A DNA stretch of 64,000 nucleotides from Balanoglossus misakiensis (Eukaryota > Animalia > Hemichordata): contig CM082593.2 of the NCBI GenBank assembly GCA_040954595.2, forward strand, positions 1,002,901 through 1,066,900. Direction: 5' to 3'. Position numbers and translations under genes: made by a program. Of the stretch, positions 914 to 61,093 are shown one piece after another (the first letter of the stretch is position 1; each line of letters begins with the position of its first letter). The notes under the pieces are model-generated. The model ran no database searches and had not been told where the DNA came from. It saw only the letters and a program-made list of their open reading frames with translations.

Positions 914-8817
<7,904 letters not shown>

Positions 8818-10369: not shown

Positions 10370-19865
<9,496 letters not shown>

Positions 19866-37150: not shown

Positions 37151-38427
37151 ATGTCTGTCATAAGAAAGGAAGAGAACGGCCATTCCGTTGTCATCCAAGA
37201 TGAGCCGAGCGGAAGCGGAGAGTCCAGTCTGGAGCAAAGAGGTAGCAGACTACGGAATTCGCTACTATGCGTTGGTTTGATCACGATGGAACTTGCGAAG
37301 CAGATTGCTGCATACAGTAGCAACCAGTTCAATGGAGGACGGTACCCAATACATGTGTCAACAATTGTCGCTTTGATAGAATTCTTGAAGCTCCTCATCT
37401 GTGTCTATCTTTTTACTCCCAAGAGAGAACTCACTTCAATTAAGTTGTCATGGAAATTTGCAGTCCCTGCTCTCATCTATGGCACTGCAAACAATTTGTT
37501 CCTCTTCGCTTTGAATTTCACTCCACCGCCATTATGGAACGCCCTGATACAGTCGCGTGTGATTATGGTAGCTGTTGTCTATGGCATCGTCTTCAAGAAA
37601 GGTACCACACTCCTGAGGGCGCTAGCCATGTTCATTCTGCTCTTGGGAATAGCCCTGGCTGCACTTTCTGGATCAACTCCAGGCCTGTCCGTGCAAGAAC
37701 CTGTGATGCGGATTCTCATCCGTGCAGCTGTATTGAGTCTGGTCACCACTTTGCTGTCAACAGTAGCATCTGTGTATTTAGAGGTGAGTTATAAGTGGGT
37801 GGCTTTATTTATTGCTACCAGTTGCACAGTTCTTTTCTGATTAGCCAACACAGGGCTAACAACAGTTTTGCACTGAGTTAGCCCCAAGCTGACCCATTTT
37901 GAAACGGGGTCCTAATCTGTATCTACAGAGCTGCATGATGATGATGATATGTATCCATTATTTCACCACAGCACCTGTTGAAGAACACCGGTGGGACATT
38001 CCTGGAACACCAAATCCAGCTGTACCTCTTTGGCACTGCAATGACCAGCGTGTGGTCACTCTACATCACCAGGGGTCACCCGTTTGCCGTCTACGGCCGC
38101 TTTAACATCGGCCGTGGTCTGCTTGTCGTTGTCACGGTGATTCTGTGCAGTGTGAGTGCCCTCTTAGTTCCGGCCATCGTCAAGAAGATTGACAACATCT
38201 CCAAGCTGTATTCTTCCATTGTGGCTATTTTATTGACATCTTTCCTCTGTGCCTGGCTCTTCCCGAAGACATTCCAGCTGACTCTGTTGTTCTTCGCAGC
38301 TGTCTTGATCATCTTTTTAACCCTGCTTATGTACGAGCGCGTCAAGCCCAAGGAGACATCTTCCGAAAAAGCCATTTCCTTGAGTTCAGGTGACACACTC
38401 ACATTAGATGCTGAAAAACTGTTGTGA
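37151..38427 (+). CDS. SLC35A-family nucleotide-sugar transporter (2 coding exons, ~362 aa)
   Basis: Exons 37151-37783 and 37972-38427 join at phase 0. The protein is multi-pass and carries the SLC35A motifs EFLKLLIC, FAVPALIYGTANNL, ASVYLE, IQLYLFG and IVKKIDNISK. Confidence 0.88.
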
Positions 38428-41355
38428 AATAGTGTGGACAGATGCACACATATCTCAGGTGAAAACTGATCCCAAAGTCTCCAATTCAGTGTTTAGACAT
38501 AACCCTTTCACCACCATGGTTCAGCCCTAACCCATTGTTTTCTAAGGTAAGGTTGGACCTCTAAAGACGGAACTGGGGGTGAAAGGGTAAAGCAAACACT
38601 CAATGAAAGAAAAACAGGCCAGTAGCAGTTACTGCAGTGCAGGCAAACATGGTGTCCACACAACCAAAGCACATGTTGCCAACATGACATCACATGGTAT
38701 GTTTGTTTGCATAGCTGTTCATTCTTTCTTCCACTTCTTAGGCCAGTATGGGTGGGGAGGATGGGGGGAAGGTACAGTGACAGAACATGTTGTTTCTAGT
38801 TACATTTTAAACTATGACCTATGACATCATAGAGAACTTACCTCTGAACAGGGTTAATCTCCAAGGCTGAAGTCCTGGCTGAATATCTGTACATTATTTT
38901 TAATTTCTTTTCTGCTTTCCAGAGCTCTTTCAGTGTCCTCATTTTATGGTGGAAGCTTGATTTGTTTTCTGTTATCAAGATGAAACAGTAGATTATCATA
39001 TCTGATGTCTTTAATACCGAACTATTATGTTTTCAATAAACTCAAAGCTTGATCCTATTTGCATATTAATTATCAAATCAATTTTGAAGACTTCCTACCT
39101 CAAGTGATTATAACTATACCATTTTTCAGTCAATATTTTGATTGTTAGGTATGATATAAATATCTTCTGTACATGTATTTTTTAAATTTATTTATGGCAC
39201 AAATAAACTGCCGACATATATTTCTGTAGTCACACAGAAAATTAATTGATGTACATGTATAGTGCTGTAACTATTTTGGTATTAAGTTGGTCATCAAAAA
39301 TCTTTACACAGTAGATCCTCTGCAAACCTTTGGTATAATGATTAGAGAACTCTCTTAGCATCTTCAACAATAACAAGTCAACCCTCATTTTTGTGAAATG
39401 TTACATAATATGTCTACACAAAGTAATATGCATTAGCCAAAATGCTTATAAATGTTTATGTCAGGCAATTTTGCAGTATGTGGTGTACCAGTAAATTGTG
39501 TTACTTTGTGAATATGATTGTCCGACCCGGTTTATCAGTATTGAAGGCCGATGAGCCTATTCATCAGTTCAGTTTGAGAATATCCCATTGTGAGACCATT
39601 TTTAGGTCTTTAAATATGACTAATGAAGTTGTTATGCAAATCAGATAATTTACATGCACATTATAATCCACACGTTCACAGTGAAATGCTTTTTTGCACA
39701 ATGAATTTATAACTTTGTCATGGCTGATTCTGTTTTCCAAGTTGATGTTTTTGTAAGCTTTTTGATTAGACCAAGAGAGAAATGTGTTCTTCTGATATCA
39801 TACTTTCAAACTGGGCAGGTAGATCAGAAACAATTTTATTTTACGGATTTTTAATGTTCCTGTAGTTTGTTTTGCATGCTTCCAAAATATAGCTGTTAAA
39901 AAATGACTGAAGATGTCGGAGAAACACAGTTGATCTCAAAGACATTGATGAAGTTATGCATTTTCTCGCTGTTTTTGCAACAGGTTGCTTGTATGTGTTG
40001 TGTCAAATATTGAATTATTGGAAACACTGTTGAGTTTGCCAATAAATGTTCAAGTTTAAAATAATCAGCTTGGTATGCTCACTTGACATCGCGAAAGAAG
40101 TGTCAGCATAAGGCTGCCCTACTGTCTGGGCCCCTAACACGTGTATAGTAATGGCGAGCAATGTGCGTGTTGGCTGACCTCCTGGATCCGAGCGGGCCAT
40201 ATCCCTGCTCCAGAAACCATAGATGGACTTCCTCGCCACACCAGTTAAGCTAATGGTTTTCTGACACTTAAGCACGCTACTTTTAACCATATACTTGCAT
40301 TTTAAAGAAGGATATTGCCGCTTACTCACCTAAACATCTGAACTAGAAATCAACGAAAGTGCAGACGGACGAACTCTAGAGGGCGCTGGAAAAGCGCGCC
40401 CTCTGCGACTAAAAATTGGAAAGGTCGTACAAGACCAGTGCATTTTGCACCAAATATTCAAGAAAAATTGTTAAGGCCAAAAGGTCGTGGACATCACTAT
40501 CTACGTGTCAGTTTATAACTGTGTGATGGTACCGTACAGTATATAGTTCATCAGCCACAGCCCATCTGCCACGCTTTGATGACCTCTGCTCCTTCACCGA
40601 CTGTAGCTATTAAAACTTTGAGTTAGTTTCGGGTCAGTCCTGTTGCCTGCCAACATAACTATGTAAACTCTGTCTGTTCCTCTTATCTGAAAGGGTACGA
40701 TTGGATTAAATTTCTCGAGGGAATTGATTCGAAGCAGACGTCATTCGTCCCTTGCACCCATCGCTTTAATTGAACACAAGGGTCACTGCGTTTAATCATG
40801 AATACATAATTATATGTTGGTAATTTTAGCAGGTATTTTGCCCGATGTATGGCATGTTAATGATTAAACACCTTTACTGCAGTATTGGCTTTACCTATCA
40901 ACATGCACGTAGCACTCCGACGCCCACGAGCGTGTTAAACCTCTTCAGGCAGAACCAAGTAAATAGACTTTTCTGTGGAATTCAAAATCAAAAGTGAAAG
41001 CTCCATGGCATGTATTCGCAGTGTAAATGCCAACATAAATTTATCATAAATTGTCAAATAATAGTTAACGAATCATTTGGGACAGGCTAAAGTGAAAAAT
41101 AAAACAACAATAAAAAGTTGACCTTTAATCTACTAGTATTCAAAAAGGCTATTTTTACTTGTTCAAAACATGTTGACAGTTTGGCAGTTATAGTACACTA
41201 CTGTACAGACAATATATAGGGGTCATTTCAAGTGTTGGCATATTTTGCATATGAAAAGATCCTGCATTGATTAAGATACCCATAATGCACATGCAGAAAA
41301 AAATCAATTTTGAACATGTATTTCGATCACTGGATGAAAGTAGGCGAGACGGTCT

Positions 41356-44300
41356 TCACACACCCATTAACTCATAATCACCACCGCGTTTGTTAAAGTT
41401 GTCGTCACTTCGTCGGAAATCCTCTTCGTTTTTTCTCCTCTTTTGGGCCCCACTTCCAGCCGCAACATCACGAGGAACGTTTTCATTGTTCAAATGTTCC
41501 CTGTCTTGTTCTTCTTCGGCGTCTCCATCCCTCCCTTCAGATCCCGGCAGCAAAGGCACATTCTCGTACGACAGTTGATTGCTAACCTGGACAGGACCGT
41601 GGAGAACGTGACCATGTGACTGTTCAAGGCGCGGCTCCAGTCGAGTACTTCTCGGTGGCAAGGGCTCCTGCAGCAGTTCATAAGGACTCTCTTCTTCCTT
41701 CCTTCCATCACGGTCAACATCATCAACGTTTATGTATGACGCAGATGTATCATCTTGGTAACTGGCATCTTGTGGCAATTGGCACCATGCTTCTTCAGTA
41801 TATCCTCGTCCTACAGTAATGTCTGGAATGATTGGTTGAGGCTGTGACATATATTCTAGTGAAATAAAAAATTAAATAAATTAATAAATAAACAAACAAA
41901 CAAACAAACAAACAAACAAACAAACAAACAAACAAACTGTTAGTGTAAAAAGGTCATATGTAACACCATCTTTGAGTGCAAACTACATTACACGTATGCA
42001 CGCACAACAGAAATATTTGCATATTTACCTCTCGTGACATCTGTTCTTATAGCCTGTGATGAGCACGCAACATCTGGTAAATTTTCGTAATCCAAATTGT
42101 TTTCTTCTGCTGAATGTGGGTGAAATGAAACGTACAATCTAATTGATATATTTAGCAGCAACAAATGAACCTTATGTTTTATAAATATCTAGCATAATAA
42201 GCCCTAATATATGTGGCAATATATATATGCTCATATTGCATAGGTCTTTGCCCAGGCTGGGTAGAGAATTAAATAAGCATAAATACCATTCATTTGTCTC
42301 TCTTTATTGTGTCTTTTTGGAGTTGCGTAAATTGCCTGATTAACAACCACAACCATATCCCTTCGCCGGGTTTCATTCTCATCCGGGTCACTGGGAAATG
42401 TTACTGGAACAACTGGAACACAAAATTTAGAAGCAGTCTAGTGTGATGTATCGCGATGCAGTGTTACCTTTGCCAACGTTGGTCAAAGAGCTTAATTCAG
42501 ACACAGATATAGCGTACTGTACTGAATATATTAAATATTTTTAGGAAGACGGAAATTCATTCACTGAACGGGAAACAAACACTGAGATATACAAAATATG
42601 AAAGTTTACTTACTCGTTTCTACAGAATCATCAATGACATCATACCTTAAATCATAAATCACGAGAAAAATGTGTTGATATATTATGTAATATGCAAATT
42701 TGGAATGATGATAATCTGCATAGCTGGTTTGATTGTGGTATTCTTGGTGAATTTTCCAACGGATATATTGGGAGTTTCACATGCTGCATAGCAACAGCTT
42801 ATGTCTTTTTAAACGGAATGTTCAAATTTTGGGTTGTTTCCCTACCTTAGTCTTGGATTCTTAAACTTATTTTCTGGGGATAAAAAAGAAAAGCATTGTA
42901 TATTAAAGGAATTATAGGATAGTTAGAAAGACGAGTGTTTATCGTTCTCCACTGTCAGACCCACGACTAACAAATGATGCTGTTTTCTCGAAACAACACC
43001 ACAAAATCGAGTGAAGGCAATAAATCGCGAAACCTTAGGAACGCGTCTCTCTCCTCCCGCTTATATTTTTGGAACTTACTTTTTTTCTTCCTTGCAATAT
43101 AACACAAAGCGAGCGTCAATATGGAGACTGCCAGAGCCAAACCCGCCATAGCAATGGCCGCTATTTTGAAACCATGACCATCAACCGTCGCAACTGCTGA
43201 GGGAGGCGATGGTGATGATGATGATGATATGTTGTCTGTGAAATGAAAAAAAAGAGGGAAACGTATTTTAATCAGGTGACACCAAGGACATTTTTTTAAT
43301 TACGGAGAACTGTAGTTGATTTAACCCCGAAGGCTACATTATACATGGCCAGAAAGTATCCTAAAAGCTGACTGGATTATGAAATGTGTCTTGACATTTC
43401 AGACAGTCTAGCTAAAAATCACGGGCAACATTCATCCAACTCAGCTGACAATATAATACATGTAATGCCAAATAAGTACACTACTGACCCAATGTGCTTT
43501 CTGTAACTGCAGGACTCTTAGTTTCTCCAAACACGTTTTTGCTTATCACTGTAATGTTGTATGTAGTGAGGGGCTTCAAGTCCTGGATGACGATCTCCGT
43601 CTCTTCAGTGGGCGTGGTCGTGTGTCTGACACCTGTAGATACGTCGATGTATTCGACGTAAAATGTCTGACGTTCTCCTCCGTCGAAGCCCGGTTGCCAA
43701 GACACAATGAAAGTAACGACTTGTGCTATGATGTTGACCTGTGTTACTCTGTCCGGTCGGGCTGCAAGAGAAATAAGCGTGGCAAGATTGAAAGGGTTTT
43801 GTTTGCAGTACAGTCTTTTGCCATTTCTCCGTACCTCCATCCAACTGTACCTTACAGTCTACAGCTATCCCAAAACTCAGAAACAACACTCATATTATAC
43901 TCACATTTTCCTTTAAGATTGACCTTAAACTTGACCTCTCCCATATGGTTACCGGCCTGGCATGTGTAGTATCCATGGTGATCCATGGTAATATTATTAA
44001 TGGTCAATGTACTTGTGACGATTGTGCCATAAGTGTTCTCTGCAATACTTCCTGTGTCTATCGTCGTAATGTTTTCGCGAGTTGGATAATACCAGTCTAT
44101 TTTCGGGGGCGGGTTACCGTCGACCTTGCATGTCAAAACTGCAAGTTCACCCTCATCTGCTGCCACTGTGCCGTGTTGTGAAGGGTTTAAAATAAATGGA
44201 GCATCTGAAATTGAAAATGTATGGAACCTATGATGCTGGTGGTTTTGGCCAATTATAAGAATGCCGGGCAGTTTCTGTGTGCATTCCTGCTCTGGTTTTG

Positions 44301-47300
44301 CGCGGACATCGTATATACATGCAGACAGTGTTCTCTTATATGTTGTGGCCACATGAAATATACTTACAGTGGACGTTCAATTTCAACTTGGCATCAGATA
44401 CATTGCCGAGGTATTTCGGATTAACCGCTTCACAACGCACCGTGACACCATGGTGACGAGAGGTCAAGTTCAACGACAGGTGTTGCGTGGTGATTCTACC
44501 ATTGAAACTACCGGTGGAATATCTCTTCTGACTGAGAGAAGATGTCATTTCTTCGCTTTCCAGATACCAACGTAAATCAGATGCTGGGTTACTGCTGCAT
44601 GATGTACAGGTCAGCTCCAAGATTGTATGTGCCTCCATGTACTCCGCATGATGTTTGCTTTGGATTTGCATTCGGGTTTTACAGTCACCCGGATACCTCG
44701 GAACTAACAGGGGAAGTAAGCAGAATGTGAATCTTAATAATTTATTTTACTGTTTGGTTGCTTCCATTTCAAGACCACAGAGAATTTTGGCAAAGAATAA
44801 CGAAAATGCATTGTAGAATTTGTACAAGGAGTCTCTTTGCCATGAAATGATAAGTTTTCAGTAATGGGATTCTACAGCGGCTAAGCCTGGTGTCACGGGA
44901 TGGACGGCACATCATCACAGTGCCACTATAGTGTCCACACAGTCACATATCCATAGAGAACTATGTCAGCCACTATACAGAACATCTGTAGCCATACTTA
45001 CAATACACTGTGATTGGAATTTCGATTGAGTTAACGCCAGGCCTTCCAATAAACTTCGAATTCGTTGTAACACACTTGAAGAATGCGCCATTGTCCTCTG
45101 GATTGGAGACTATACTCAGCGTTTGTTCTGCAATAACACCGTTGTATTCACCACCTGTTTCGCTGTTAACGACACTGCCACGCCGAACGTCAATTGGTGA
45201 GCCATTCATGAACCATGATATGGTCGCTACGGGGTTGCTACTGCTCGTTGTGCAGGTCAGGTTGAGCACACCGCCAGACTTCACAGGATCACCGGCAGAT
45301 ATACTGACCCTTTCTGCTTGGACTGAACAAAGCGGTATCCATAATTAGCTTACCAACCATCGAGCCTTGGTTAGAAATTTCAGTTGACTACAACATAAGA
45401 GTCAAATTGTTATGCGCGATGACCAACTGTTTCCACATTAAAACGTTTGATTCCATACATACTTCCTGGTCGACACACCACCTGGCAATGATCCCGTTTT
45501 ACAACCAATGATGATAACTGTTTAATATTCATGCCTACACCTGGACTGAAATCATTAGTATTATTACTATTTTTATTCTGTACTTACAGTAAATGTCGAT
45601 GAAAGTGCTGTTGTTTCCATGTCCCTTCCCACCGATGTCGTCACAGAATTCGTTCTCAGCTCTGCAAGTGTAGACACCAGACTGCTCTCTATCGATTCTG
45701 TGTACGATCAATGTTTGGCCAGATGTTGTTTCTCCAGTCGGGTGAATCCATTCCACGTGACTCACAGCTGGAACTGCATCTACGTTGCACTCTATGCTTA
45801 CGTCATCTCCCTCCTTGGCCTGCCTCACCACTGGTGCACTAACCACTGGATCGTCTGAATGAAAGGTATTCGAACAAAAAGAACCAATATTACTTATAAA
45901 GGGAACACTCCGACTAATATAAGATAACGTGTGTACGTTAACAAGTTCAGAAATGACATCTAGCATATTGCTACTCATCGATCGTATTGGTAATTGTTAT
46001 TTTACTCATCCAATGCTCCAACCACAACCTTCAACCACAACAACCCGAATAATAAACAAAGTTAGATGAGTTCAGTAAAATTTTACACTTACATTGTATT
46101 TCCACAGATGTTTGGCCAATATTCACACCCCGATCACCATTAAAGAATTCGTTACTCACTTCGCACTCAAATAATTCTGGATTTGTGTTTCCTGGATGTA
46201 CATTATCTACCATCAGCGGGTTTGGTCGAGTTGCATCAATTTCACCTGATCTTTTCCATTTTATTAATATTTCTGTAGCCGGTATACCAGGTGTATATGA
46301 GCAGCTTACATGTAGAGTGCTGCCTTTCTTTACACACACTCTTTCGGGAACTCTGGCTGTTGGTGGATCTGGAAATGTTATAAAAGAATAAAATATACAC
46401 ACTTGTTGTTTATTTTATATTGATGGAAAATTTCAATTTGCATACATGTACAGAAACGTGTTTCATCAAAGCATGGTCCTTCCTGTGTGGAAGGATCCTG
46501 ATCAAAGCGAGGCTCTGACCTCAAGGTTTTCCTCATGGCGCCAGTGTCATTTTTTCAAGGTGATTTCGTTGACATTTAGCATATATAGGTAAATCTCCAA
46601 GTTTACATACATTGTACAATAGGCTTTATGTCATCCGGACAGGTCAGTGGTGTTGTTATACTATGGTGGGTCAGTTTACAAGTGAAAGAAGCTCCAGCAT
46701 CTGTTCTGTGTATTGTCTTCCTAAAGGTCAGCGGATTCTCTCCAAGTATTGACGTGTCTTCTCCGTTTTCAGTCCAAACTAACTGACCTGGTGGCGATGC
46801 TTTCGCTGCAATGCTACACCTCATCTCGAAATCGCCCCCTTCAATGATTTCATTGTTGGGACCAAGTCCGGAAACAACTTCACACTTAGGTCCAGAATCT
46901 GAATTGAAGAAATAACGTGAAGTTTATGAAATGTTTACTCGTAAACATTTGTCGAGGGGGGCAATGTTTCTTGATTTCTACAGGCGGTGATTTGCGGAAA
47001 TGATGTCACAGAAATGTTAGTAACACTGTGATAGAACGATACACTGTATTTTGATAGGGCAAAAAGTCGAAATGGGCAAAAATTACAGCTGATGTCTAGA
47101 ATATTTACTCCCTGCATACCAAGTACGATGACTTCGGTGACTTCTCCGTCCGAATCTTCCGAATGATTACACAACCATTCTCCCCCATCGGTCTCAGATA
47201 CTGCTGTGATGACAAGGTTAGCTTCACCATGATCAAAATCACCAGAAACGGTGCAACAATCATCGTAGGATTTCCCATTTAAGGTAACCAGGTGAAACTC

Positions 47301-47752
47301 CCCTCCATGTTTATATCTGGACCAATCAGGTGGCGTATCAGCATTCAATTTACAGTATAGTGTTACAGCATCACCAACCATGGCTATAGTGTTATCTGGT
47401 CTGACTTCCAAGTTTGGAGTTATTCCATTCGCTGTTGACAGTAACAAATGAAAAAAAATGTCTTTACACAAACGGTGCCATGTGCACATTATTGTTTGAA
47501 ACATCTTATCTCTGAAGCATTTTGCAAAGTATAGGTACTAACGATGCAATACTCTTATTTGCATGATTCGACAAATTGAACTTCATGTACATCTAATAAC
47601 CCATTTTGCGCATTTCCTTTCATTTTGCATTTAAATAGTTTCACTGATTATAATGGCAAAACAAAATATATTATAACGGAATTACCTGTATGAGAGTTAA
47701 GTCCAGTGGTCACGAAAATTGCGATTATTAAAACCAGTGAATGACGAACCAT
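41356..47752 (-). CDS. Nephrin-like type I Ig-superfamily receptor: signal peptide, 7 Ig, FN3, TM, ~255-aa tyrosine-motif tail (15 exons, ~1120 aa)
   Basis: Exons 47752-47686 (signal MVRHSLVLIIAIFVTTG), 47431-47120, 46898-46611, 46368-46093, 45854-45588, 45322-45002, 44703-44368, 44204-43905, 43761-43489 (FN3, WQPGFDGG), 43235-43080 (TM), 42873-42846, 42645-42614, 42412-42287, 42109-42029 and 41855-41356. One domain per phase-1 exon. CTxxSSNP C2-set signatures resemble the nephrin/kirre family. Confidence 0.88.
41864..41937. repeat. (AAAT)n-(AAAC)n microsatellite forming the pyrimidine tract of the last Ig-receptor intron
   Basis: About 12 AAAC units preceded by AAAT units. Confidence 0.9.
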
Positions 47753-48045
47753 ATCGAAAGCACGTTAAATAACCTCAACTCAAATAACCTTTTGAACGCC
47801 GTGTAAGATATCAACCTGTTAAAGTCAAAAGAAAAGTCACTAGCAATATGAACGTTTGTTCAAAGAAAATTTTAAATAACGTAAATGTAATAATGCAAAC
47901 GGACAGACAGGAATGGCAACATGGTGTGTTTTTATTCTAACATTTCCAGGCGATTGTACACTATGTTCAGAAAAAAGTCACTGACCCATGGCATTTCAGG
48001 TGGGAGTATTTTGCTATCGAAACTCTTAGTCACCACTCACACGAG

Positions 48046-48101
48046 GAAAATGAAAGATAATTGTGTATAGTAGTTTCCGTGTGACTCATAGGAATTTCCC
48101 C
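48046..48101. promoter_or_regulatory. IRF + AP-1 + kB composite element
   Basis: GAAAATGAAA at 48046-48055, TGACTCA at 48082-48088 and GGAATTTCCCC at 48091-48101, about 300 bp upstream of the Ig-receptor ATG. Confidence 0.55.
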
Positions 48102-49272
48102 GAAGGTAAGTGTGATACTCAGCTTCCCAACAGACAAATACTTGTCTTTGGCTTCACGGAATGACTTCAGACTGGTTTGTGACCGGTCATTTTAAGTACG
48201 ATCACTCTACAAATGACCGTGATAGAAGTAATTTCATCGTGTGAGGTTAGCGAAGCATCTATACGGAATGAAACATTCATTCAGGTCATGCCATGATTTC
48301 AATGATGATTTTATAATTTCAGGAAATGCAATTTTGAGTATTGTTTGTGATATTTATAAGGAAGTAAGTCCGTTTTTGTGTGACCAAGAGTATGCATAAT
48401 GGTGGACTGATGAATGGTTGATCGATATAACACGACAAGCTATCTTCCGCTGCTTGCGTACGTTACAAGTTTCGTGTATTTTTTTACTAAACTGGGTTGA
48501 ATTTCTATCGAGGGTCGTACAATTTTCTTAATGTCTAAAGTACAGCGATAACTATTATCTTCCGTTTCGTCTAAACAACATGCAGGCACAGGGTGCCTGT
48601 CCTACCGTATCGACGACCAGTGTTTTGGTGGTACAGAGAAAGATGGACTTCGGCCCCGTCGTTTCGAGTACCTAATGAGAGCTACCTGAATGAAATACAG
48701 TAAAATAGTATGTAGGTTTACCTTTACAACGGCCTGTTGGTCACTGTATCCGATACAACGAAACGCGATTTCAATTCGGATGAGAAATTGTTAGAAGTTA
48801 AACAACACTTGTTCCCGAAACCGGAAAAGGCACTCAAAGCAGCCAACAGTGTCTGTATGACGTCATCAGAGATAAGCACAGGTTTCGGGAGTTGTACATA
48901 CAAACCAACCCGGTAGTTTCAAAAGCTATTCACTGCAGGTCACCGCCTTTCAACTTTGCAGGGACCATATCAGTCTGCTGTGTCAACATAATTGACATAA
49001 AGGGGGAGGGTCGTTTGAACTGCACATATGCAAACTTTGTTGACTTGCCAACCAATGTAACTTGGAAATATGATAAAAAGTAACGACGCCTTTAGTGACG
49101 AGTCGTGAATATATAGTATTGTGTTAATAAAGAAATTTATGAACTAAAAGAGCTTGCTATTTATTTACAATTTTTTGGCATAACATTATTTTACTTTCGC
49201 TTTTCTATAAGTGAAATACTGCAAACTTTAAGTTTTATTACGCGACTGTCTAAGTTTATCTGCTATCAAATC

Positions 49273-49731
49273 GAAAGCGAAAGAAAAACTATTCTAGTAG
49301 GTATGAATCATCATGGACATCCCATTAGCTGGGTGACCTTTAACCTCTTTTCTCGGTAATACAGGTACTGCAAACAGGCTATGGTTTTGTCTCTTCTCCT
49401 GAGCTAATTCACAATCAACAGGCCATATACCCCAAGCTTTACTGTGTGTGGCTACGCTACCACCGAACTTTATTACAACAATAGTAATAACAATTGAACT
49501 CATACAAGGCAGCTCATAAAATGCATCAAGACCCCGCCCTAAAAAACAGAGCTTAAAAAACCTCTTAGAGGGAAAATCCTCTGAAAAAGCGTTAGGTCTC
49601 ACAGCCAAAACAGAAAAGAAAAGAAATAACAATTTTAACGGACCAGAAGGCGACTCGACTGGCCGGTGGTAGCGCGTAGACTGACCTGATTACCCCACCT
49701 ACATGTACTTGATATTCATACTCCTATAAAC
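49273..49731 (+). promoter_or_regulatory. Probable promoter of the Ig-pseudokinase gene (IRF site, kB site, TATA)
   Basis: GAAAGCGAAA at 49273-49282, GGGAAAATCC at 49570-49579 and TATAAA near 49725, about 105 bp before ATG 49831. Confidence 0.5.
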
Positions 49732-49830
49732 AGCGCCCTCACGAAACAACAAAACATTTATTTCTCTCTATACGTTGTACCTTGAGAAATTACATTTTGC
49801 ATCAGGGAGCTCACCAACAGAGTGCTATAG

Positions 49831-52800
49831 ATGACTTTTCTCACGTCGAGTATTGCTTGGATCATTTGTAGCTTTGTTTGTAACGTGTTTTGCAGTGATA
49901 CGGTTGGTGAGTGGATATTGAAAATGACAATTTGGCGCATTTAGGTCAATGTATGACTTTGTAAATATATGCATTTGTGTTCCGTTTGTGTGCTGGGTGT
50001 TCTTTGTATTACTTGACAAGATTAATTAACGTGTTTTAATTTGAAATTGCTCGACTAGGTACTTTATTTGCTTGAGTAAGGTGATTCATCGCAATGACAT
50101 ATGAACTGTGCATAAGGTAAAAACTGCATTTAGCAATCTGGGTCATTTCGTGTTCGGCATACAGTTAGTGAATTGCAATGGCGGACAGCCTCGCGCTGTT
50201 AATAGTGATAAGCCTAACCAACGGAAACATTTAAACGACCAAGCCTTTCTGAGAATTGCTCTATATGTGTTTGTGGGAAATTTGCTGATACGTTGGTATC
50301 ATAATGGTGGGCGTAACTGGTCAAAATCAGCGTCCTTCGCTTTCCTTCGGTTTCCTTCAGTTTCCTTCGTTTTAGTCTCACCCTCATTAACTAACAGTAA
50401 TAATTCACTTGTTCCGGTTTGTTTTTCAGCAAACTTGATGCGTGCAGGTTATTTATTAGATCCGTAAAGGACCTATATTTGTTTCTAAATTTCGGGGTGA
50501 CCTCAGACTATAGGCCCTACGTTTTGATAGATAAATATAGACATGGCATTTGCCTAATTTGTCTTTGCGTTGTTCACAAAAGCCTTATGTGATTCTATAA
50601 GACAATATCTTTACATAGCTTAGTCGGTACTAAGACGTTTTAAAGTTTATGACGTAGCATTCTAACCATGAGCATAGTCATTTGACATCTGGTATTGTTT
50701 TGCTTTAAGGCAAACCTTCGTGGGAATACGGACCAGACGATACACGAGGTATAGAAAGAAGGAATGTCACGTTTAAGTGTAAACTAAATCTGTATCCAAA
50801 CAGCACACTGCCGCTTTGGTACCAACTTCTTCCCGGAGACAAATACATTCGTCTCTCTCAAGGACCCAGTTCTAACATCGATCGTTTCATAATCACCGGT
50901 AACCACGATATCGGAGAATACAACTTGTTAATCACAAATATAAAGTTGCAAGATTCTGAGAGTATCTGGCAATGTTCGCATATAGAAGCCGTTCCACAAT
51001 ACAAGAGAGCAAAGCTGTCAGTAATCGGTAAGCATGGTTGTTAGTCAATCTATCTGATTAAAATCAGATGTAGGGAACGGCGACGTATTTTACTTATCCA
51101 GTACGGTATTCTTATGCTGTCATCTCACACGAGTACTCGTGTACTATACTCCTTGGTATATCCAATGAACTATTTTGGGCCAAATTCACCAATCAATGAT
51201 CTCACCAGTGACGTTATTTTGTATTTTCTTTCCTGCAGTACCAGCTGATGTGCCAGAAATTCAGATAATAAATGCCACAGAAGGTTCTAATTACAAGTAT
51301 AACATTTCTTGCAAAGTATCAAGAGCTAAACCAAAGGCTGAACTCTTATGGTCGACCCGCGACGCACGAGATTTCATTGAATCGTCTGGAGAAAATAACG
51401 ATACGACGCATCAGACATTGAGCAGTGTCACGGTCTTACACACTTGCGATTCCTATCAACATCAGATAAATATTTCTTGTCGTACTCAACAAGATCATTT
51501 CAATGAAAGCAGGGAATCATGGACCATCATCCCAAAGTACTGCGCCATTTCTGAAGGTATGACTAATCTCAAGGCCATTTTCATTACCCCTATGTGACTT
51601 TTACATCCTGGCATTTTATTGGTATGTGTATTTCGAGTTGAAACTCTAGAACAAAATAACATTGAAGTTTATGTTACAAAGGAGTGAATGTTTTATTTAA
51701 ACGTCGAACGATTTGTGACGTCATTCCAACAAAACAGCTGGGTGTAAGGTTACTCAGGGGTCATGAAAGTGGCATAATTTAACTGAATAGCCAAGTCCCA
51801 GATGTTCAAAATGAATTCGTCCAATGTTGTTCTTCCATTTTGCTAGACCTCGTGGGCACTTTATGTAAAGCATGTTACCTAACAACTCGCGTATGTCACG
51901 CGAAAGGAATGAGTCAGGTGCACGGTCACGGGGCTCGTAACTTGTGAGATTATGTCCAATTATGACAACTGGCAATCTGACATGTATTCTCGTTTCATTT
52001 TCACAGGCAGTTGTATAATCGTTTTCCTGACCACAATTATGTTTTGTGTTGGTGTTACTCTAATCGTTACGACTACGTAGTAAGTAGGCCTACTTAAATT
52101 TCTTTAGCCTCCACCGTGAGACAGTCTTGCTAATGTTTGTATGTCTGTGTGTGTGTGTGTGTGTCTGTGTGTTTGTTTGTCTGTCTGTCTGTCTGTCTGT
52201 CTGACATTATCACGAACCAAATCGGGTGGAATGTATAAACAACAAACTGCAATTTTCAATATTTAATGAACTTCTATGGTAACAGATCTAGATGTGTTCC
52301 CGATATTACTACACCGAAATTAATGAAACTCAACTTTAACTAATAATATTTTATTACCTTTTCCAAGGTTATAAAATGTCATATTAGTTAAAGTTGCATC
52401 TTCTATCTCATGGTACACAGGAATTGAAGGTTTACCAGGCAAAGACTCGTACATAGCCGACGTTGTCCTGTTCAACTTTGAACAGCAGAATGAGGAGACC
52501 AGTATATGGCCGAAGATTGAGCACTTTTCATAATCTCTACATCTATGTCATTATCATAGCCTCTCCATATATATGCGTAACGAAATCTGATTCGAACTAA
52601 CCATTTTCCGATAGATAGGCGGTTTATATATGGAGGACATTCTCGATCGGTACAAAAGACAACCAATACTTGGCCACTTGTGTTAAACTGCACTAAAGTT
52701 ACATATACATATATGCACCTATTCCCGTTTCATACAAAGCTTGATTGCATTATTTGGCAACCAACCCGTACTAAAGTAATTACCAAGTTTCGTGAGGGCA

Positions 52801-55800
52801 ATGCGTGGAAAATCAATTGTCGCGTTCAGCAATGCAGATTTATCTAGATAGAGAACGTTGAAATTGTCTGTCTTTTGTGACCAGGTTGCATATATATTTG
52901 TTTTTTTAGTAGAAAATTAATAAAGTTTCGTTTAAATGTTTAACTAATAAGCGAACTACGCCTATACTAGTACGTGTCTTTTGTGTTCCTATTTGTTCTC
53001 CGACTCTATTTTTGGGGAAAGTTAGACAGTCATTTTCATTCATGTACCTCACTATCACCATCTCCGGAAGATTTAAAATGTTACTCGAAACAAACACATG
53101 TAATCATATTTTACGTTGACAATGGTGGCGCTGTCATCAACGTGCGGCGCGGAAAATAGAACGAAAGGCCTTCTTGGGGTCGTGGGGGTATGCGTAATCC
53201 GGAAAAACCCACTTCACATAATACTAGGTACTTCAAAGTATTGAAACTTCCAGGTAACGTATCTCAATAGAGTTTTGACGAAAGTTTGTCAGCAATTGTC
53301 TGTGCCAGAACAGGCGTGGTGATAAGAAGGCATCGTGGCATGACGGGAAGTCTGGAAAATCAGATATCGAAACGAAGTAATGTTGCTAGTGGAGACAACT
53401 GCAACACAGCCTACTGTCATATCCGTAAGACAATCGAAGACAGAAGCAAGATTTCGCTTTTAAAGTTTCACGATGAAGGAGGGTTACAACTCAACTGGAA
53501 ACCATGATTCAAGCCCCACCTTGAAGCAACAAACAAATCGTACGTATGCGCCATTTCAGAGAATTGTATCAGCGTAAAATCTGCACGGTGAATGCTTTTT
53601 CGACGCGGTTTGAGGTATCACGACAGTGAAAATCATAACATTACATTGAGCTTTTACTTCATCTGAAAACTGGCTTAAAAGTTTTTTTTTTGTACTTTAA
53701 TGTGGCAACGTATAGTAAATCTTGCAGTTTTGACTTTGGTTTGTAAAAAATGAGAACGGTCGAAGTCACCAAAATCTGAGATGATATCTAATCTTCATTG
53801 ATTGATTGATTGACTGGTTGGTTGATTGATTTTATACGAACGTGCAACTATGGAAAAATACTCTCTTATCACCTCCAACTTCCATACATGTCTTCATTCA
53901 TATGTTATTGCAGTTTTCTATGTAGGAGAGCCGAACTACGTCGTTTTATTTACCTGCGTTGGTGGCGGCGCAGTTCTCACCTTACTGCTGGGCACGCTGG
54001 TATTGATCGCCCAAAGACGACAGCGGGCGCCGTTGCCGCGTAAGTATCCTTGCAAATCCATATTCATGTTCACATCATAGACACTGGGTCTATGGTTGCA
54101 AGTTCTGTAAACAAGGTGAACACGACATTTCCTGGAATTAATACACCTTAAAATGAGTCAAACAAAGTCGTCGGTTTCGGCAACACTTATGTCTGTTCCA
54201 AAATAACTTAATTTCAGGGAAATGTTTTCCTAATGCCGTTACTTTACGATTCTATTGTCTATGTTTTCCAATGAACTCAAAACACATAAATATACATGTT
54301 TCTACACGTTCCCATTTCCTTTGACCAAGATTCGAAAGAAGGTGTATGATTGTCGTTTGATGGCGCTCTCATTAGTTTCCTAAGAACTGATTGCTCCCTC
54401 AGTTCTCGTTGATAAATTTACACTTTTGTTATGAAGTATTTATATCATGATAATCAGTTAGCAGTAAGATGAAGATGGAAAGCAATTTGTAATTTGATTA
54501 TTATAGCAGAGCAACAGACAGAAGACATATACGAAAATATGTTGGAAATGGGTATTCGTCATAATGTGATCCATGCTGAAGGTAACGATGCTGGTGACGA
54601 AGGCAGCGACGACGGGTCCAGGGACGACGACGGAGTTGACGAAGACGTGTACGATGACGCTGCGAGTACAGACATGTTACAGACACGTGTAAGAATTGAA
54701 AAATAACTTCGATCATATTCATACGTCCAGTCTATAATTATGTAACCAAACAGTTGCTTTTAGTTTTCAGCAATTTCGTGTTGGTTATTTTACTTGAATT
54801 AACAGGATCCCTCTATCACGTGAGTGATTTTAACTGTTTTTCAAACGTGCTATTTTACAAACAGGAATTGGGTTCGGAGGGACGCTACACTGAACCAGAC
54901 CCTCGGGCTATCTGTAACCATGAATATGTGCGACCGGGGCTAAGAGTTTATGAGGTTGGACGTGATCGAGTTCACATTTCGGGCACTATACACGATGGAA
55001 GATTTTGCCAAATTCACGTTGGCGAGGCTTGGTTTGTTGGTGGTATGGACGGAACAACCAAAGTTGCTATTAAGATTCCAAAAGGTAACTTTCAACCGCG
55101 TACGTCGAGCCATTTTCCCTGCGGGGATTCATAATCTAGCCATACAAATTGGCCACCACAACGTGTTCATGTTGCTATAAAGTAATCAAATCGCTTTTCA
55201 CTCAGTGTCATTATATTTTGTTTGACTTTAATACACAGAGGTTGAAGATTCTGTCACTCAATATGGTAGGATACGTCGTGAAATTGAATTGGTGAAATCA
55301 CTGTCTTCAAATGAGAATATCACAACGTTCCTGGGATGTTGCACACAATTAGGTATTTGATAAGAATCTTGATGTTCGTTGATTTGTATGTCGGTTACCC
55401 AGGATTTTTGGTTCATGAACTTATTTATCAAAATACTTTAAAAAATATTTTTTACACAGACCCAGCGTACTTGATAATGGAGTATGCGTCATACGGGAAT
55501 CTCAAGACGTTTCTGACTGAAAACTGGGCGAGATACGGACCAAGTGACAATGAGGGTGACTCGAAGAGATTGCGATTGTCATTTGCTGTTGACATTGCAA
55601 ATGGGATGAAGTATCTAGCTACAAAGGGGGTAAGCTGATATTTCATTATGATATCAATAACTGATTCTAAGTGGTAAGATTCCACCGACTTTGACAGATT
55701 ATGACCTTAAACGTAATTCTTGTGTATATTTATTTCTCTACAGATAGTCTACAGAGCCCTTGCTGCCAAACGCGTGCTCGTTTGCGACAGTAAACTATGC

Positions 55801-56943
55801 AAGATTTCCAATTTTTCCTACGCCAGCGGTGTAATTGACGAGACAAAGGCGTTCAACAGGACATCGCAGGTATAACTCATATACCAGTATACCTTTTATT
55901 TTGGTGGGGCTATGCAACCAGCAACTAAGGTAACCGTTTGGCAATACAGATGACAACAGGAATTCATTTTCTCTTATCTCTTTGACTGGGTGAACATCAA
56001 AGTTTGATGAAAACTGGGAAATGGCAAAATAGAAAATGGAAATTCTAATGAGACTTGCAATTTATTTTTAATAAGGGTGGGCTTCCGTGTCCCTGGCTTG
56101 CCCTGGAAACTTTAACACATGGTACTTTCAACACGAAGACAGACATCTGGTCATTCGGTGTTGTATTATGGGAAATTGAATCCGGAGGTAAAATTTTATA
56201 TTTTATTTTAAGCTACAAAGAAACGTTATATAACTTTCTGTGATTAGAGTTTTTGTTGGTAGAGTTTTGAAAATACAAGTACGTCAGGTTTGTTTGAATA
56301 CGACTGATTTCCTTGGAAACTGACTATTTGCCAATGTAAGATTAACAAGTAAAAACCCTATGTGGGCCAAGTAAATATGTAGTAATATTTTGCCTGTGTG
56401 CAGGATGTGATCCTTACAGTGAGCTGGACAACAGTGATCTCATAATGAAATTAAGAAGAGGCCACAGGTTGTCGAAACCAGACTGTTGCGAAGATAGGCT
56501 GTGAGTACAATTGCCGAGTTAAAGTTTGAAAAGTGACGCATTGATCAAAGGCAGCAAGACAGTCTGCCTTTTCTCTTACTGATATCGGAATTACGGCATC
56601 TGCATTCATGATGATAGCACTGGGTGAAAGTTCTGATCTTCCACTCACACAATGCGTAATCGTGTTTTATTTAGATACAACCTGACACAGTCCTGCTGGG
56701 CGAAAAAACCTCGCGACCGACCAACATTTTCAAACCTCTTGGACAGGTTGAAAGAGCTCAGAGATTACAGTGACGTAAGTTTTACTCTACAAAATAATGT
56801 CCTCTCTTTCTCTCCCCCGGGCCCTCTCTTTCTCTCTCACTCCAGTCAATTTCGTTCGTGTGTCATGTCACCGTGTATTCATTTGAAAATAACACAAGTC
56901 TGTTTCTTTCCAGGAAACAGTCCCATTGCAAACGTTTGACTGA
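49831..56943 (+). CDS. Receptor tyrosine pseudokinase with two Ig domains (13 exons, ~658 aa)
   Basis: Exons 49831-49906 (signal), 50710-51027 (Ig V, absent from the ORF track), 51239-51556, 53926-54039 (TM), 54507-54688, 54865-55084, 55239-55352, 55460-55629, 55744-55869, 56076-56187, 56404-56500, 56675-56774 and 56914-56943 are phase-consistent with no stops. Tyrosine kinase fold motifs: VAIK, LIMEYASYGNL, DIANGMKYL, WLALE, TDIWSFGVVLWEI, CW...RPTF. Confidence 0.88.
52007..52080 (+). CDS. Alternative terminal hydrophobic exon of the Ig-pseudokinase gene (tailless ~261-aa isoform)
   Basis: Acceptor tttcattttcacag in phase 1 after Ig exon 2. Encodes GSCIIVFLTTIMFCVGVTLIVTTT followed by TAG TAA. 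Confidence 0.6.
52100..52380 (-). mobile_element. Microsatellite-bearing interspersed element fragment(s), DINE/HINE-like
   Basis: Compound (GT)n/(GTTT)n/(GTCT)n tract at 52133-52203 and a short hairpin TTACCTT..AAGGTT near 52354-52370. Confidence 0.35.
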
Positions 56944-57410
56944 CGTGAGAATTCTGCCGCTGCCTTCGCAAGAGAATCAACGATAGCATCCCACAGACAA
57001 CACATACATGTAGATGCATAAACAATAAATAAACTCTACCTGTTTTCCAACCACATTACACGTTCAACTTCACATAAACTCCGTAGTCTGTCTCCGTAGT
57101 TTAACACGTCACCGCAAATGCTGACACGACACTCGGTTCCAACTTGACGACGTCGTATGCTGGCCATATATTGCTCTGGTCCTCTGCTCCTAGCTGGGCC
57201 GGGGCTGTGCAACGGGTAAGGTCGAGCACCCAGACTAAATTGAGAGTCGCTCTCGCCGGAAGCCACAGCCATGTGAGCGATACGCGAGAACAACTCTGCG
57301 TGGAGATTGATGGGAATACGTTATCAGAGGTGCGGACAAACATCATAGGGTCAAGCACGGTCAATTGTCTGGCGTCTCTGCCTTGCACACCTGTTCCAAG
57401 AGTGCAGAGC

Positions 57411-57494
57411 GTAATTGACCAATCACAAGTGCTGAGGTCTACCTGTCTCATTTGTGCGGAAAGTAATTGACCAATCAGAATTGTCGGGGTCTAC
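57411..57494. repeat. 52-bp-period tandem duplication containing two CCAAT boxes
   Basis: GTAATTGACCAATCA...GGTCTAC occurs at 57411 and at 57463. Confidence 0.7.
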
Positions 57495-58004
57495 ATTAAT
57501 TGCAAAACAGAGAGGATAAACTCGATTGCCTCCGTGTCGGTTTGAAGGCACTGAATATCGCCATCTTTGACTTTGTTACCTGGAAACCGTAGTATGCAGT
57601 GTTATATTTAGACTGGTCTTGTTTTTTTCAGCTGGACTGAGAAAGACTTTATGTGTGATACTTTTCCACTGTTCTATCTTTGTATTAATACGAAAACTAT
57701 CATACACCAAGACTCGTATGATGTTATTGAAATAAAACATACTTTTATTATGAAACAAAACCAACTAATACAACCGTTTTGTCTAGGCAAATATCTATGT
57801 CATCGTCCAGGTCAATTTTAGGCCCCTCATTGGTGTGCGGGGAGCTTATTGCAACCTCCTGCACGACCTTGGAATATTATCTTGTCAGACAAAGTAGGTT
57901 CGGGTGCATACCTGTGTAGAAGACGAATGCTAAGTAGGACAACAAGCTACGTACTCGCCTGGTATGTTGCCATGGGGACTAGTATAGCGGATGAAAATTC
58001 ATTT

Positions 58005-59456
58005 TTACAAACTGTAAGAGGTCATGATAGCGGCAAGTTGAAACAAACCCTTTTTCAGTGCAACGATTGTCAGGCTATGCGAACCGGGTGAAAGTCTACT
58101 CGATATGCGTTGTGTCAGAGTGACGCCAAAGCTCCATTTTCCATTGACGACAACCGTGGACATCTTGTCTCCGTCGAGATAAACTTGAGCTTTGCCACAT
58201 TTTGGACAGCCAAACGTTGCGATGGAAACCGTGCATCTGAAATTTTCATACGGTTCATTGGTGAAACGAAAAGTAATAGAATTGTCTGTCTTGTCGCTCT
58301 TCCAAAACTGCTTTACATCTGTTCTATTTGGGTCTGCTTTCCCGTCAGGTGTCCAAAGCGTCCATCCACGTACAGCGACTGGTTGCAGATTCCCTAGGCT
58401 TTTGCGTTTAGTGGTCAACGCGGTCCAGCAATTTGGTCGATAAATCACGGCAGTCTTGAACAGAGGTTTAGGGATCCTATCCCTTTGTGGGTAACTCTGC
58501 TCTGCTCTTTCTGAAAGCACATTGTTGATCGATTTGGTCAGATTCCCGAGAACGCTCCTGAAAAGTTCACAAATAAAGATCCCCATCATTTTATGAGCTT
58601 TTGGATTAGGGTGGTTGTCTTTGGTACTTACGGTTAGATCAGTGATTTTGAATTTGGGGCTTTGAACTTGAGGACATACCGCATCAGGCATACTTATTGA
58701 CGGGATGTTATAATATTCGCTCAGGGGCACGCTTGCTACTTTCTCGTTGTTAATGCACGATTTCTTCTTCATTTGTTGTCCGTGTAAAAAGTTCACATAA
58801 ATGAGTTGTGGCTTTTTGGGAAGATCGATAATTATCCGAGTGAAATCTTCTTGAGCCCACGGTCCGACTTTCTTCATGAAATCATTAGCTGCGAATTCCC
58901 ACAGAACAATGTCCAGTTCTTCAATTTTTAAATGAGAACCAAAACAGTATGCATAATATCTGCTGTCCGTGGCACCGATTGCGGCGTTGTGGAGCATCAC
59001 GGGAATGTTCAAAACAGCTTGAATGGTTTCAGAGAATACATTTGCATAGGTGAATTTTCGGGCCGAAATCGAACCACCTGCTACGCCAACATGCAGAGTT
59101 CTGTTTGACGTCATAGCTTCGACTAGGATGCGCTGTAAATCGGACGTTGAAGTCATGTGCTTTAGTGCTTTCGTCACCATGATTGGGGTAACACCAAGCT
59201 TCGTCTTCTCTCGCGATATTTTTCTGTCAATATTCTTCATTGCTGTTTGAAGCCGATGTAACATGTCTGTCCAATTTCTCGACTCGACAGGCGGTGTACC
59301 ATTATTGTGTGCATGCGCATATCGCATTACCAGTGTTGGGTCTCTGTACGGTCTTCCCGAGGAAAAGTAACCGATGTAGACAGCATACAGAAATATTGCA
59401 AACACAAACACATACTTGAGTCCACTCCAGGTTACAGTTCTATTGGGTCCTGTCAT
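58005..59456 (-). CDS. Type II membrane SGNH/GDSL hydrolase-fold protein with C-terminal beta-rich domain, single coding exon (483 aa)
   Basis: N-terminal TM YVFVFAIFLYAVYIGYF. SGNH blocks: I VAGGSIS, II NAAIGAT, III WEFAAND, V KDNHPN. Confidence 0.82.
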   Translation of the reverse strand: MTGPNRTVTWSGLKYVFVFAIFLYAVYIGYFSSGRPYRDPTLVMRYAHAHNNGTPPVESRNWTDMLHRLQTAMKNIDRKISREKTKLGVTPIMVTKALKHMTSTSDLQRILVEAMTSNRTLHVGVAGGSISARKFTYANVFSETIQAVLNIPVMLHNAAIGATDSRYYAYCFGSHLKIEELDIVLWEFAANDFMKKVGPWAQEDFTRIIIDLPKKPQLIYVNFLHGQQMKKKSCINNEKVASVPLSEYYNIPSISMPDAVCPQVQSPKFKITDLTVSTKDNHPNPKAHKMMGIFICELFRSVLGNLTKSINNVLSERAEQSYPQRDRIPKPLFKTAVIYRPNCWTALTTKRKSLGNLQPVAVRGWTLWTPDGKADPNRTDVKQFWKSDKTDNSITFRFTNEPYENFRCTVSIATFGCPKCGKAQVYLDGDKMSTVVVNGKWSFGVTLTQRISSRLSPGSHSLTIVALKKGLFQLAAIMTSYSL

Positions 59457-61093
59457 TCCGCAAGCTTACTTTGGTACCTGTTCAATGGAAAATGGTTGAG
59501 TTTGGAATACAAGTTCTGATCTACCGTCTGCATATGCTGAGGACAGATAATATGCTAACGTCACCAATTCAAAGTAATGTAAATTTTATGAATTACAAGG
59601 TGCCCACGCCCAGAAGTTTACTACAGCAGCCGAACAAAAGTTGTTTGCGTTTTCAATTGATCACTTGTTGTCTCTTTTGGAAGCCCGTGTGACTGTGACG
59701 ATTATTGTGAATACACTTCTACAATGCTATTCCCATTTCAAAGTCACTGACACCTGGTTTCCAGGGGTCATTTCTGCCTTCCATTATATATCTGTGCCTT
59801 CTGATCCCTTTTCACACTGTGTTAGCTGTCAACGGACTATACTTCATTTGCTTTCGAGTATAAGAGACCCTTCTCAAGACTGACAAATGCTCAAATGCAG
59901 TTGAAGTGGAACACACACCTAGAAATCTCCCAAATACGCTATTATGTGAATCATGACCACGATAATTACACTTTAATACTGGTAATATAATTACGGCATA
60001 GCCTATATTAGTCTGATATAATGGTTAAATGTTCTCCAGCGCATTCAAGGATAATTGCTTAAACAATACATCGACAATGAACGAGCCTTTCCTCAGATAA
60101 AGGGAATTTTCTCAATATTTTTTTTCATCCAGGTTGCATTTCATGTGACCATGACAACGGGATCGTCAGGGTGACCGGCCTCTTTCATGAGCTAAAAGTA
60201 TCCAAGCGATCGACGAAGCTTGCTCAATATGGAATGTGATAGCTCGATCCTTAAAATTTTCAATTTCCTACCACTGTCTAATTTTCAGGCATATTTGGCT
60301 ACCGTCCTCCGCACGGCTTGGCCATCTCGTTCTGGGTAGGCCAACAGTCTGTCTATTGGTCACAGTCTCCCTAGTATTTCAGGAACTCCCCCCCCCTTCC
60401 GAAATAAACATACCTTGTTCAGCAGAGATGACCATCCTAAAGACAGGTCTGCAAACAGCCAATACTCTGCGCCTTACACGACGGGTATTGCTCAAATTCT
60501 TGTGTGCCCAGAAATGTTGAGCGCCATCTTTCCTTATTATGCGCAAAAGACATGTCACGTTCGTTTATTACGCCACACACACTGAGCCACTTAACATGAT
60601 CTGTGACGTCGAAGGCCGTATTCCTATCTGATTAACGCAAGAGACGACCAATCATCTGCGCAACGTAGCCGTGTTTTCAAAGGAGCAATTTTCTCAAAAA
60701 TGTAGGCCTATTGGTTTTGATATATGTGTAGGGGGCCTACCCATCGATCATTTTTTCTATAGCTAAGACTGCTTTGTTCCGTTTAATTCGATCGCGTACT
60801 GGTAAAGCACTCAAAATAAACTAAAGTTATTATATGCGGCCTATCTGCTAATGTCTACGACTATAACAAATATCAAATTCTTTACTTTTCCTGGTTTATG
60901 GGTAAATAATACGTTTAATGGTCACATGTCAAACTTTAATTTATAACTTATAAGCATGTTTTTGAATTACCCTGCCTGTTCATGTCTGGTAAGTTTTTCG
61001 AGAGCGAAAATCCGGTCTATAAGAGCTCGATTGGGGATGCCAGCGTGACGCACAAAAATGTTGCCTGTTGATTGATTAAATAAAACAGGACAG

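Follow-up and report, generated by a model that had tools for sequence, protein, structure and literature searches.

Head-to-head immunoglobulin receptor genes in the acorn worm Balanoglossus misakiensis: members of a family with differing tails and a candidate receptor/co-receptor pair

The window analysed here, 64,000 bases of contig CM082593.2 from the hemichordate Balanoglossus misakiensis, contains two receptor genes of the immunoglobulin (Ig) superfamily in head-to-head orientation. The start codons of gene A (minus strand, 47752) and gene B (plus strand, 49831) are 2,078 bases apart, which bears out the original prediction of two genes that diverge from a 2.1-kb spacer (47753-49830), and in each gene the exons are bounded by canonical splice sites and together read as an open frame. 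The spacer holds a high-copy repeat at 49346-49807, just upstream of the ATG of gene B; this repeat is replaceable, as contigs from both DNA runs of the sequenced sample have 77 letters in its place. Three runs of one sample cover the stretch. One of them, X3, is recorded as DNA with a question mark, while we read it as RNA since its contigs skip introns exactly. It provides 13 joints: in gene A four with a clean intron, two imperfect ones and one with an insertion in the 3' untranslated part, in gene B five among the kinase exons plus 52079/52368. Both genes, including the short ending of gene B, are spliced in this bulk run of one sample. Given that X3 is such a bulk run, expression of A and B in the same cell is not deducible from it.

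Gene A (47752-41356) consists of 15 exons whose open frame spans 1,120 residues and encodes, in this order, a signal peptide, a V domain, six more Ig domains, a fibronectin III (FN3) domain, one transmembrane segment and a tail of 259 residues. The exon for the signal peptide (47686-47752) is joined in X3 to the V exon (47120-47431, joint 47431/47686), whose domain, hereafter VA, matches Pfam Ig_3/V-set and has an extra Cys-Cys. Six phase-1 Ig exons with open frame follow between 46898 and 43905, namely 46898-46611, 46368-46093, 45854-45588, 45322-45002, 44703-44368 and 44204-43905. They match the Pfam families Ig, C2-set_2 and I-set, the second of them weakly (E 0.18), and X3 contains the joints 45854/46093 and, toward the FN3 exon (43489-43761, Pfam fn3 E 3.6e-9), 43761/43905. 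The transmembrane exon (43080-43235) encodes an uncharged hydrophobic stretch and then basic residues. The tail is spread over the exons 42873-42846, 42645-42614, 42412-42287, 42109-42029 and 41855-41356; the third of these was revealed by the X3 joint 42109/42287, while its acceptor is inferred. A non-catalytic tail with multiple tyrosines had been predicted, and it was indeed found: the tail comprises 10 Tyr and four matches to the ITIM consensus, compared to a mean of 0.36 matches in shuffled tails, of which only 0.015% of 20,000 reached at least four. Gene A is thus predicted to encode an inhibitory receptor.

Gene B (plus strand, 49831-56943) is the short partner and has two candidate endings. 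The long form was modelled with 13 exons that encode 662 residues: after the signal peptide come a V domain, a C2-set_2-like Ig domain, a transmembrane segment, an acidic juxtamembrane stretch and finally a tyrosine-kinase fold. The signal peptide (49831-49906) was called from the sequence, the V exon (50710-51027, domain VB) gave a model with a pLDDT of 95.1, and the second Ig exon (51239-51556) matches Pfam C2-set_2 with E 3.8e-4. The short ending (52007-52924) starts with a hydrophobic exon (52007-52079) in phase with the second Ig exon. Splicing from 52079 to 52368 (GT..AG) creates a stop codon right after the hydrophobic stretch; the contig covers the 3' untranslated part to 52915 and ends at an AATAAA at 52919. 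For the long ending, a second transmembrane exon (53914-54039) is open and likewise in phase with 51239-51556, to which its link is predicted; it is followed by an acidic, Tyr-bearing juxtamembrane exon (54507-54688), which is open too, and by eight exons for the kinase (54865-56943, Pfam PK_Tyr_Ser-Thr), five of whose joints are of the GT..AG type. Each form has one hydrophobic segment, neither transmembrane stretch contains Lys or Arg, and no ITAM was detected in the juxtamembrane part. In X3 neither transmembrane exon is joined to 51239-51556; consequently, both links are predicted from phase. Since X3 has no cover at 53348-55099, it is neutral on the existence of the long form. In-frame ATGs are present upstream of the second transmembrane exon, and the kinase exons might belong to a gene of their own. 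Among the models of Ptychodera, there are also transmembrane segments with dead kinases that have no ectodomain (P0101).

The pseudokinase that had been proposed as the ending of gene B stands as a dead kinase fold, while its link to the V exon is a prediction from splice phase and the spliced tail-less ending had been overlooked. The kinase keeps VAIK, yet YRA replaces HRD, Arg replaces the Asn of the catalytic loop and NFS replaces DFG, from which we predict that it is inactive. This loss is shared: neither the Asp of HRD nor that of DFG is present in any of the 13 related kinase rows from acorn worms. In a quick tree, with PTK7, ROR and RYK outside it, a branch with SH-aLRT 97 separated 14 dead kinase rows, among them gene B, from 11 HRD kinases. 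The other rows of this clade come from Ptychodera and Glandiceps, and its signature is HRY/H/NF.

The two V domains are related. VA and VB share 30 of 91 residues (33%, E 2e-12), and the alignment claimed originally is visible across all five motifs (PDxT, VTxxCKLN, PxW, GxxDxGExNLxIT and WxCxH). VB scores 107 against VA, whereas none of the seven other Ig exons in the two genes exceeds 31 with it. Both domains keep the core Cys, Trp and Cys, and both carry, again as predicted, a Trp instead of Tyr two residues before the F-strand Cys. This residue is rare elsewhere: among fetched proteins it occupies the position in 4 of 466 D-x-[GA]-x-?-x-C motifs outside the family described below, compared to 15 of 35 inside. 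However, a V domain common specifically to A and B, as the original prediction had it, did not hold up. A tree of 37 V-like domains, which included database relatives and took the place of a genome-wide tree of V exons, placed VA as sister to the Ptychodera protein P0004 (XP_070543851) with support 99/99; VB, a long branch, fell unresolved near short proteins and three Ptychodera rows of the Tyr type. Forcing VA and VB together was rejected (AU p 0.032), and by score VB ranks 18th of 36 for VA and VA 11th of 36 for VB. At the DNA level no likeness between the two V exons was detected (local score 17). Recent gene conversion between them was considered and rejected. Some of the likeness goes further back: Kirrel1 also contains GxxxxGxYNLxI, the modelled VB has a Kirrel/Neph D1-like fold, and its best matches in solved structures include the first domains (D1) of Kirrel3, Neph1, Duf and SYG-1, with antibody V domains scoring nearly as high in the fold search. 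The rest of the ectodomains differs; in total A has seven Ig domains plus FN3 and B has two Ig domains. Judged from these comparisons, the Trp-type V domain is a mark of a family and not of the A/B pair.

This family became apparent from a database search with VA, which gave 93 proteins. The ten close matches examined first and ten more were all gene models of Ptychodera flava or Glandiceps talaboti. Its marks, carried by VA and VB as well, are the Trp before the F-strand Cys, PxW on strand C and GExNL. The family node has a support of 88/69 with three Tyr-type rows inside, and the Glandiceps protein P0013 (XP_077985743) has Tyr too; a single clade is not established. In the gene models of Ptychodera and Glandiceps, members end in a tyrosine tail, in a dead kinase of the one clade or in no tail. 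For example, the ectodomain of A after the V exon is 37% identical over 690 residues to that of P0013, which has a tyrosine tail and shares YELLQEP and YENV with the tail of A, while P0119 of Ptychodera, 36% identical to the A ectodomain over 695 residues, ends in a dead kinase. P0042 from the same species likewise combines an A-like ectodomain after the V exon with a dead-kinase end. On the other side, P0002, P0011 and P0016 stop 0-3 residues after a hydrophobic stretch, as the short form of B does, and P0050, P0021 and P0028 after 14-30 residues. The three best relatives of VB (P0050, P0011 and P0002) are short proteins with a short tail or none, while most of those of VA are either long receptors or a piece of such a receptor, which suggests that the V domains fall into two classes, of long and of short proteins. 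Related ectodomains with different tails had been postulated for A and B; by sequence comparison such tail swapping is real across the acorn-worm family, but not for these two genes specifically, and the gene that carries the ectodomain of A on a dead kinase is of the P0119 type rather than gene B.

Identity between acorn worms is low (34-49%), and family members lie on common contigs with near accession numbers in both Ptychodera and Glandiceps. In the window no further family exons were found: all 70 tblastn matches of eight relatives fall within 41.3-57 kb. Neither the spacer nor 51556-53914 gave a family match or a hidden FN3 exon, and a Pfam search of the 78-codon frame at 53271-53507 gave no match. 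A word-seeded search with VB for longer proteins yielded nothing among 39 candidates, and a profile search of 7,996 candidates of 511-2000 residues added one member (P0136); as both are otherwise weak negatives, a restriction of the family to acorn worms is not established. Searching solved structures with P0013 returned generic Ig/FN3 proteins, with no nephrin-type entry among 17. Our literature search, with subscription papers and the supplements of hemichordate genome papers outside its scope, found no paper on the Trp-V family.

Sequence variation in the one sample was compared along both genes. One contig of 728 bases, which covers VB, departs from the window at six places; another of 743 bases, which takes in exon 3 of A and some of VA, departs at two. 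Among the best-supported differences listed, the last exon of A has 10 changed and five silent codons and the sixth Ig exon six changed and two silent ones; none of the 15 tail codons with differences counted in A alters a Tyr. In this sample the V tips were not visibly more variable than other exons, which speaks mildly against a role as allorecognition determinant. Interaction of the ectodomains had been proposed as a check by multimer modelling, and VA was modelled together with VB. Solved pairs reached our binding mark in 51 of 78 cases and mismatched pairs in 2 of 108. VA with VB scored 0.38 (runs 0.38, 0.54 and 0.38; best control 0.15), where passing scores of at most 0.60 include only 5 of the 78 solved pairs and all four passing mismatches of 180. 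At least 48% of contacts agree between runs, and the partners have a pLDDT of at least 86. The models thus give weak support to binding of VA and VB, while the score may reflect memory of solved Kirrel dimers.

How can this arrangement be explained? We tentatively favour, with slightly more doubt than confidence, that A and B form a receptor plus co-receptor cassette of the acorn-worm immunoglobulin family. A co-receptor is the better option compared to a pair for the same ligand, and most likely it would involve the tail-less form of B. Such a cassette builds on observed anatomy, splicing, family membership and loss of catalytic motifs. Its co-regulation, binding, signalling and immune role are inferred from these, and would proceed as follows. 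The two genes would share a divergent promoter, and their V tips would pair as the first domains of Kirrel and nephrin do. The pair would bind a cell-surface ligand. The tail of A would be phosphorylated by Src-type kinases and an SHP-type phosphatase would be recruited. The dead kinase of B, together with the preceding acidic Tyr motifs (YENM, YxxP), would act as a docking scaffold without catalysis, and a second signalling arm would be present or absent depending on which ending B takes. Splicing of both genes and of the short B ending in one run, ITIM matches far above those of shuffled tails, Tyr motifs kept in the Glandiceps relative, the unaltered Tyr among the changed tail codons, the long and short V classes, the return of the A ectodomain with other tails in P0119 and P0013, the Kirrel-like fold of VB and the head-to-head precedents of Botryllus FF/FcoR and nephrin/Neph3 (both discussed below) all speak for the cassette. 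On the other hand, its relatives lie in clusters, where any orientation can arise by chance, its V tips are unlike allorecognition determinants in variability, a replaceable repeat lies near the ATG of B and the kinase half is possibly separate.

Some of these points would suit genes that each act alone: A and B could be separate members of the expanding acorn-worm family whose head-to-head position goes back to a local duplication with inversion. The V domains are not sisters and have no DNA-level likeness, the family clusters on common contigs in two species and modelled binding is weak. However, the long/short split of the V classes and the divergent spacing of 2 kb fit a unit, and we regard independent members as somewhat unlikely. 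Unlikely, and slightly more so, is a derived adhesion module of the nephrin/Kirrel type, in which the Tyr motifs would bind adaptors without an immune role; if true, cell sorting, a filtration junction or nerve wiring would be the role of these genes. Nephrin/Kirrel-type adhesion genes are single-copy, however, unlike a multigene, poorly conserved and tail-swapping family such as the one found here, with its 34-49% identity between acorn worms. Furthermore, the Trp of VA and VB is absent from nephrin/Kirrel-like outgroup domains, and domain numbers do not fit, as nephrin has eight Ig domains plus FN3 and Kirrel five Ig domains (PMC8294545), compared to seven in A and two in B. Nevertheless, the layout of A (Ig, C2-set_2, FN3, Tyr tail) is nephrin-like, the best solved relatives of VB are of the Kirrel type, human nephrin (NPHS1) and Neph3 (KIRREL2) are head-to-head, 5 kb apart (PMC2736951), and a table in PMC8294545 gives nephrin and Kirrel near-adjacent accession numbers in three invertebrates.

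Finally, A and the kinase form of B might be a classic paired receptor with the same ligand and opposite signals, which was the original idea of a pair of the KIR/LILR/SIRP type. The Trp-type V domain in both, their splicing in one run and an ITIM tail opposed to a Tyr-bearing dead-kinase tail would fit. We nevertheless consider this quite improbable and the idea was not borne out, since the 33% identity is confined to the V domain of otherwise different ectodomains, 17 and 10 rows among 36 are closer, B has neither an ITAM nor a charge in its transmembrane stretches, and the genes that truly repeat the ectodomain of A are of the P0119 type, with none in the window.

In our opinion, the main find is the family with its dead-kinase tails, while a special pairing of A and B is plausible. 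Vertebrates, Botryllus and Hydractinia have receptor families in which inhibitory tails are balanced by activating ones, while our literature searches found none in hemichordates. The family would fill this gap at the deuterostome base and would point to nephrin/Kirrel-type domains as raw material. One might speculate, although we think it somewhat improbable, that acorn worms built their own germline recognition system from such domains, with heterodimers of ITIM receptor and short partner encoded head-to-head, dead kinases in place of ITAM adaptors and a gene B that switches endings; its last exons would then decide between a silent tail-less and a dead-kinase form. The cassette offers a concrete testable pair, with two small V domains and one gene with two endings. 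For the dead-kinase clade as interchangeable receptor tails, no parallel was found in the portions of the literature compared.

The receptor tyrosine pseudokinases PTK7, ROR and RYK have a kinase fold without catalytic motifs and serve as scaffold or co-receptor. The long form of gene B resembles them in its Ig ectodomain with such a fold, but the dead kinases described here form a clade with Ptychodera and Glandiceps rows and the signature HRY/H/NF. Hydractinia Alr shares V and I Ig domains, an FN3-like domain, ITIM/ITAM tails and the status of an invertebrate gene family. However, many Alr domains are without core disulfide and Trp, Alr1/2 are highly polymorphic and Alr tails include no kinase (bioRxiv 10.1101/2022.03.04.482883), whereas VA and VB keep the core Cys, Trp and Cys. 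As in the vertebrate paired receptors KIR, LILR, SIRP, PILR and Siglec-11/16 (PMC5701461), ITIM, short-tailed and other endings occur on related ectodomains. Yet the ectodomains of KIR, LILR, SIRP and PILR are very similar and the activating member uses a charged transmembrane residue with an ITAM adaptor (PMC3533184), while A and B share one domain only and B has neither feature.

With nephrin/Neph3, SYG-2/SYG-1 and Sns/Kirre, the locus has in common the head-to-head order of a long and a short Ig receptor and a Kirrel-like first domain, and gene A also the layout of nephrin. It differs in the number of Ig domains, the F-strand Trp, the tail-less and dead-kinase endings and its membership in a multigene family. 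The fester family (FF) and fester co-receptor (FcoR) of Botryllus schlosseri, with an established role in allorecognition, are head-to-head Ig-superfamily genes with N-terminal V-type domains, a short-tailed member and one with Tyr motifs (ITIM), and mixing of ectodomains and tails across the family (PMC12582321). According to the same source, FF has Ig and Sushi domains with three transmembrane segments, and FcoR Ig, Sushi and two Ig domains. FF and FcoR also vary in copy number as gene pairs and have a high allelic diversity; for A and B, one sample was compared, with V exons not visibly more variable than the others. In contrast, A and B have one transmembrane segment, an FN3 domain in A, a dead kinase in B and no Sushi among the Pfam matches of their ten ectodomain exons. 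Nevertheless, A and B combine, as FF and FcoR do, a short-tailed gene with a Tyr-motif gene in head-to-head orientation, a likeness in layout.

The predicted dead kinase of gene B (49831-56943, plus strand) has its best-scoring matches in the Ptychodera gene models P0101 and P0102, which lie together with a third related model, P0103, on one 1.69-Mb contig. All three models have tandem dead kinase folds and lack an ectodomain, with two whole folds in P0101, and one plus a part of another in both P0102 and P0103.

Around the two genes, repeats and sample differences were found as well. A high-copy repeat (49346-49807), which lies shortly upstream of the ATG of gene B, is replaced in the sequenced sample. 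Within the second intron of gene B lies another repeat, short and of very high copy number (51050-51095). In the 3' untranslated part of gene A, positions 41228-41254 are represented by 417 different letters in the sequenced sample, in a DNA run as well as in the spliced run, which is read as RNA from its intron-exact joints. Contigs of the spliced run also cover 57005-57545, possibly as the 3' untranslated part either of gene B or of its neighbour at 58005-59465. The latter is a single open frame of 486 codons on the minus strand with an N-terminal hydrophobic stretch; it presumably carries SGNH-hydrolase-like motifs, and a Pfam search at E 0.5 gave zero matches.

Elsewhere in the window, further candidate genes were noted among the open frames. 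On the plus strand, we take the exons at 13311-19332 to encode a type II membrane protein in which several CUB-like domains are combined with an LDLa-like repeat and a serine-protease-like part, the intronless frame at 24035-25207 a seven-transmembrane receptor of neuropeptide type, and the frames at 37091-38427 a nucleotide-sugar-transporter-like protein. The minus-strand coiled-coil exons at 1772-2545 and 8521-8850 presumably resemble CCDC6.

As far as the table entries of one published study go (PMC8294545), the accession numbers of the nephrin and Kirrel orthologues are near-adjacent in Capitella, Lingula and Acanthaster. This near-adjacency hints at an old linkage of nephrin and Kirrel, a possible ancestor of cassettes such as the head-to-head pair of genes A and B.
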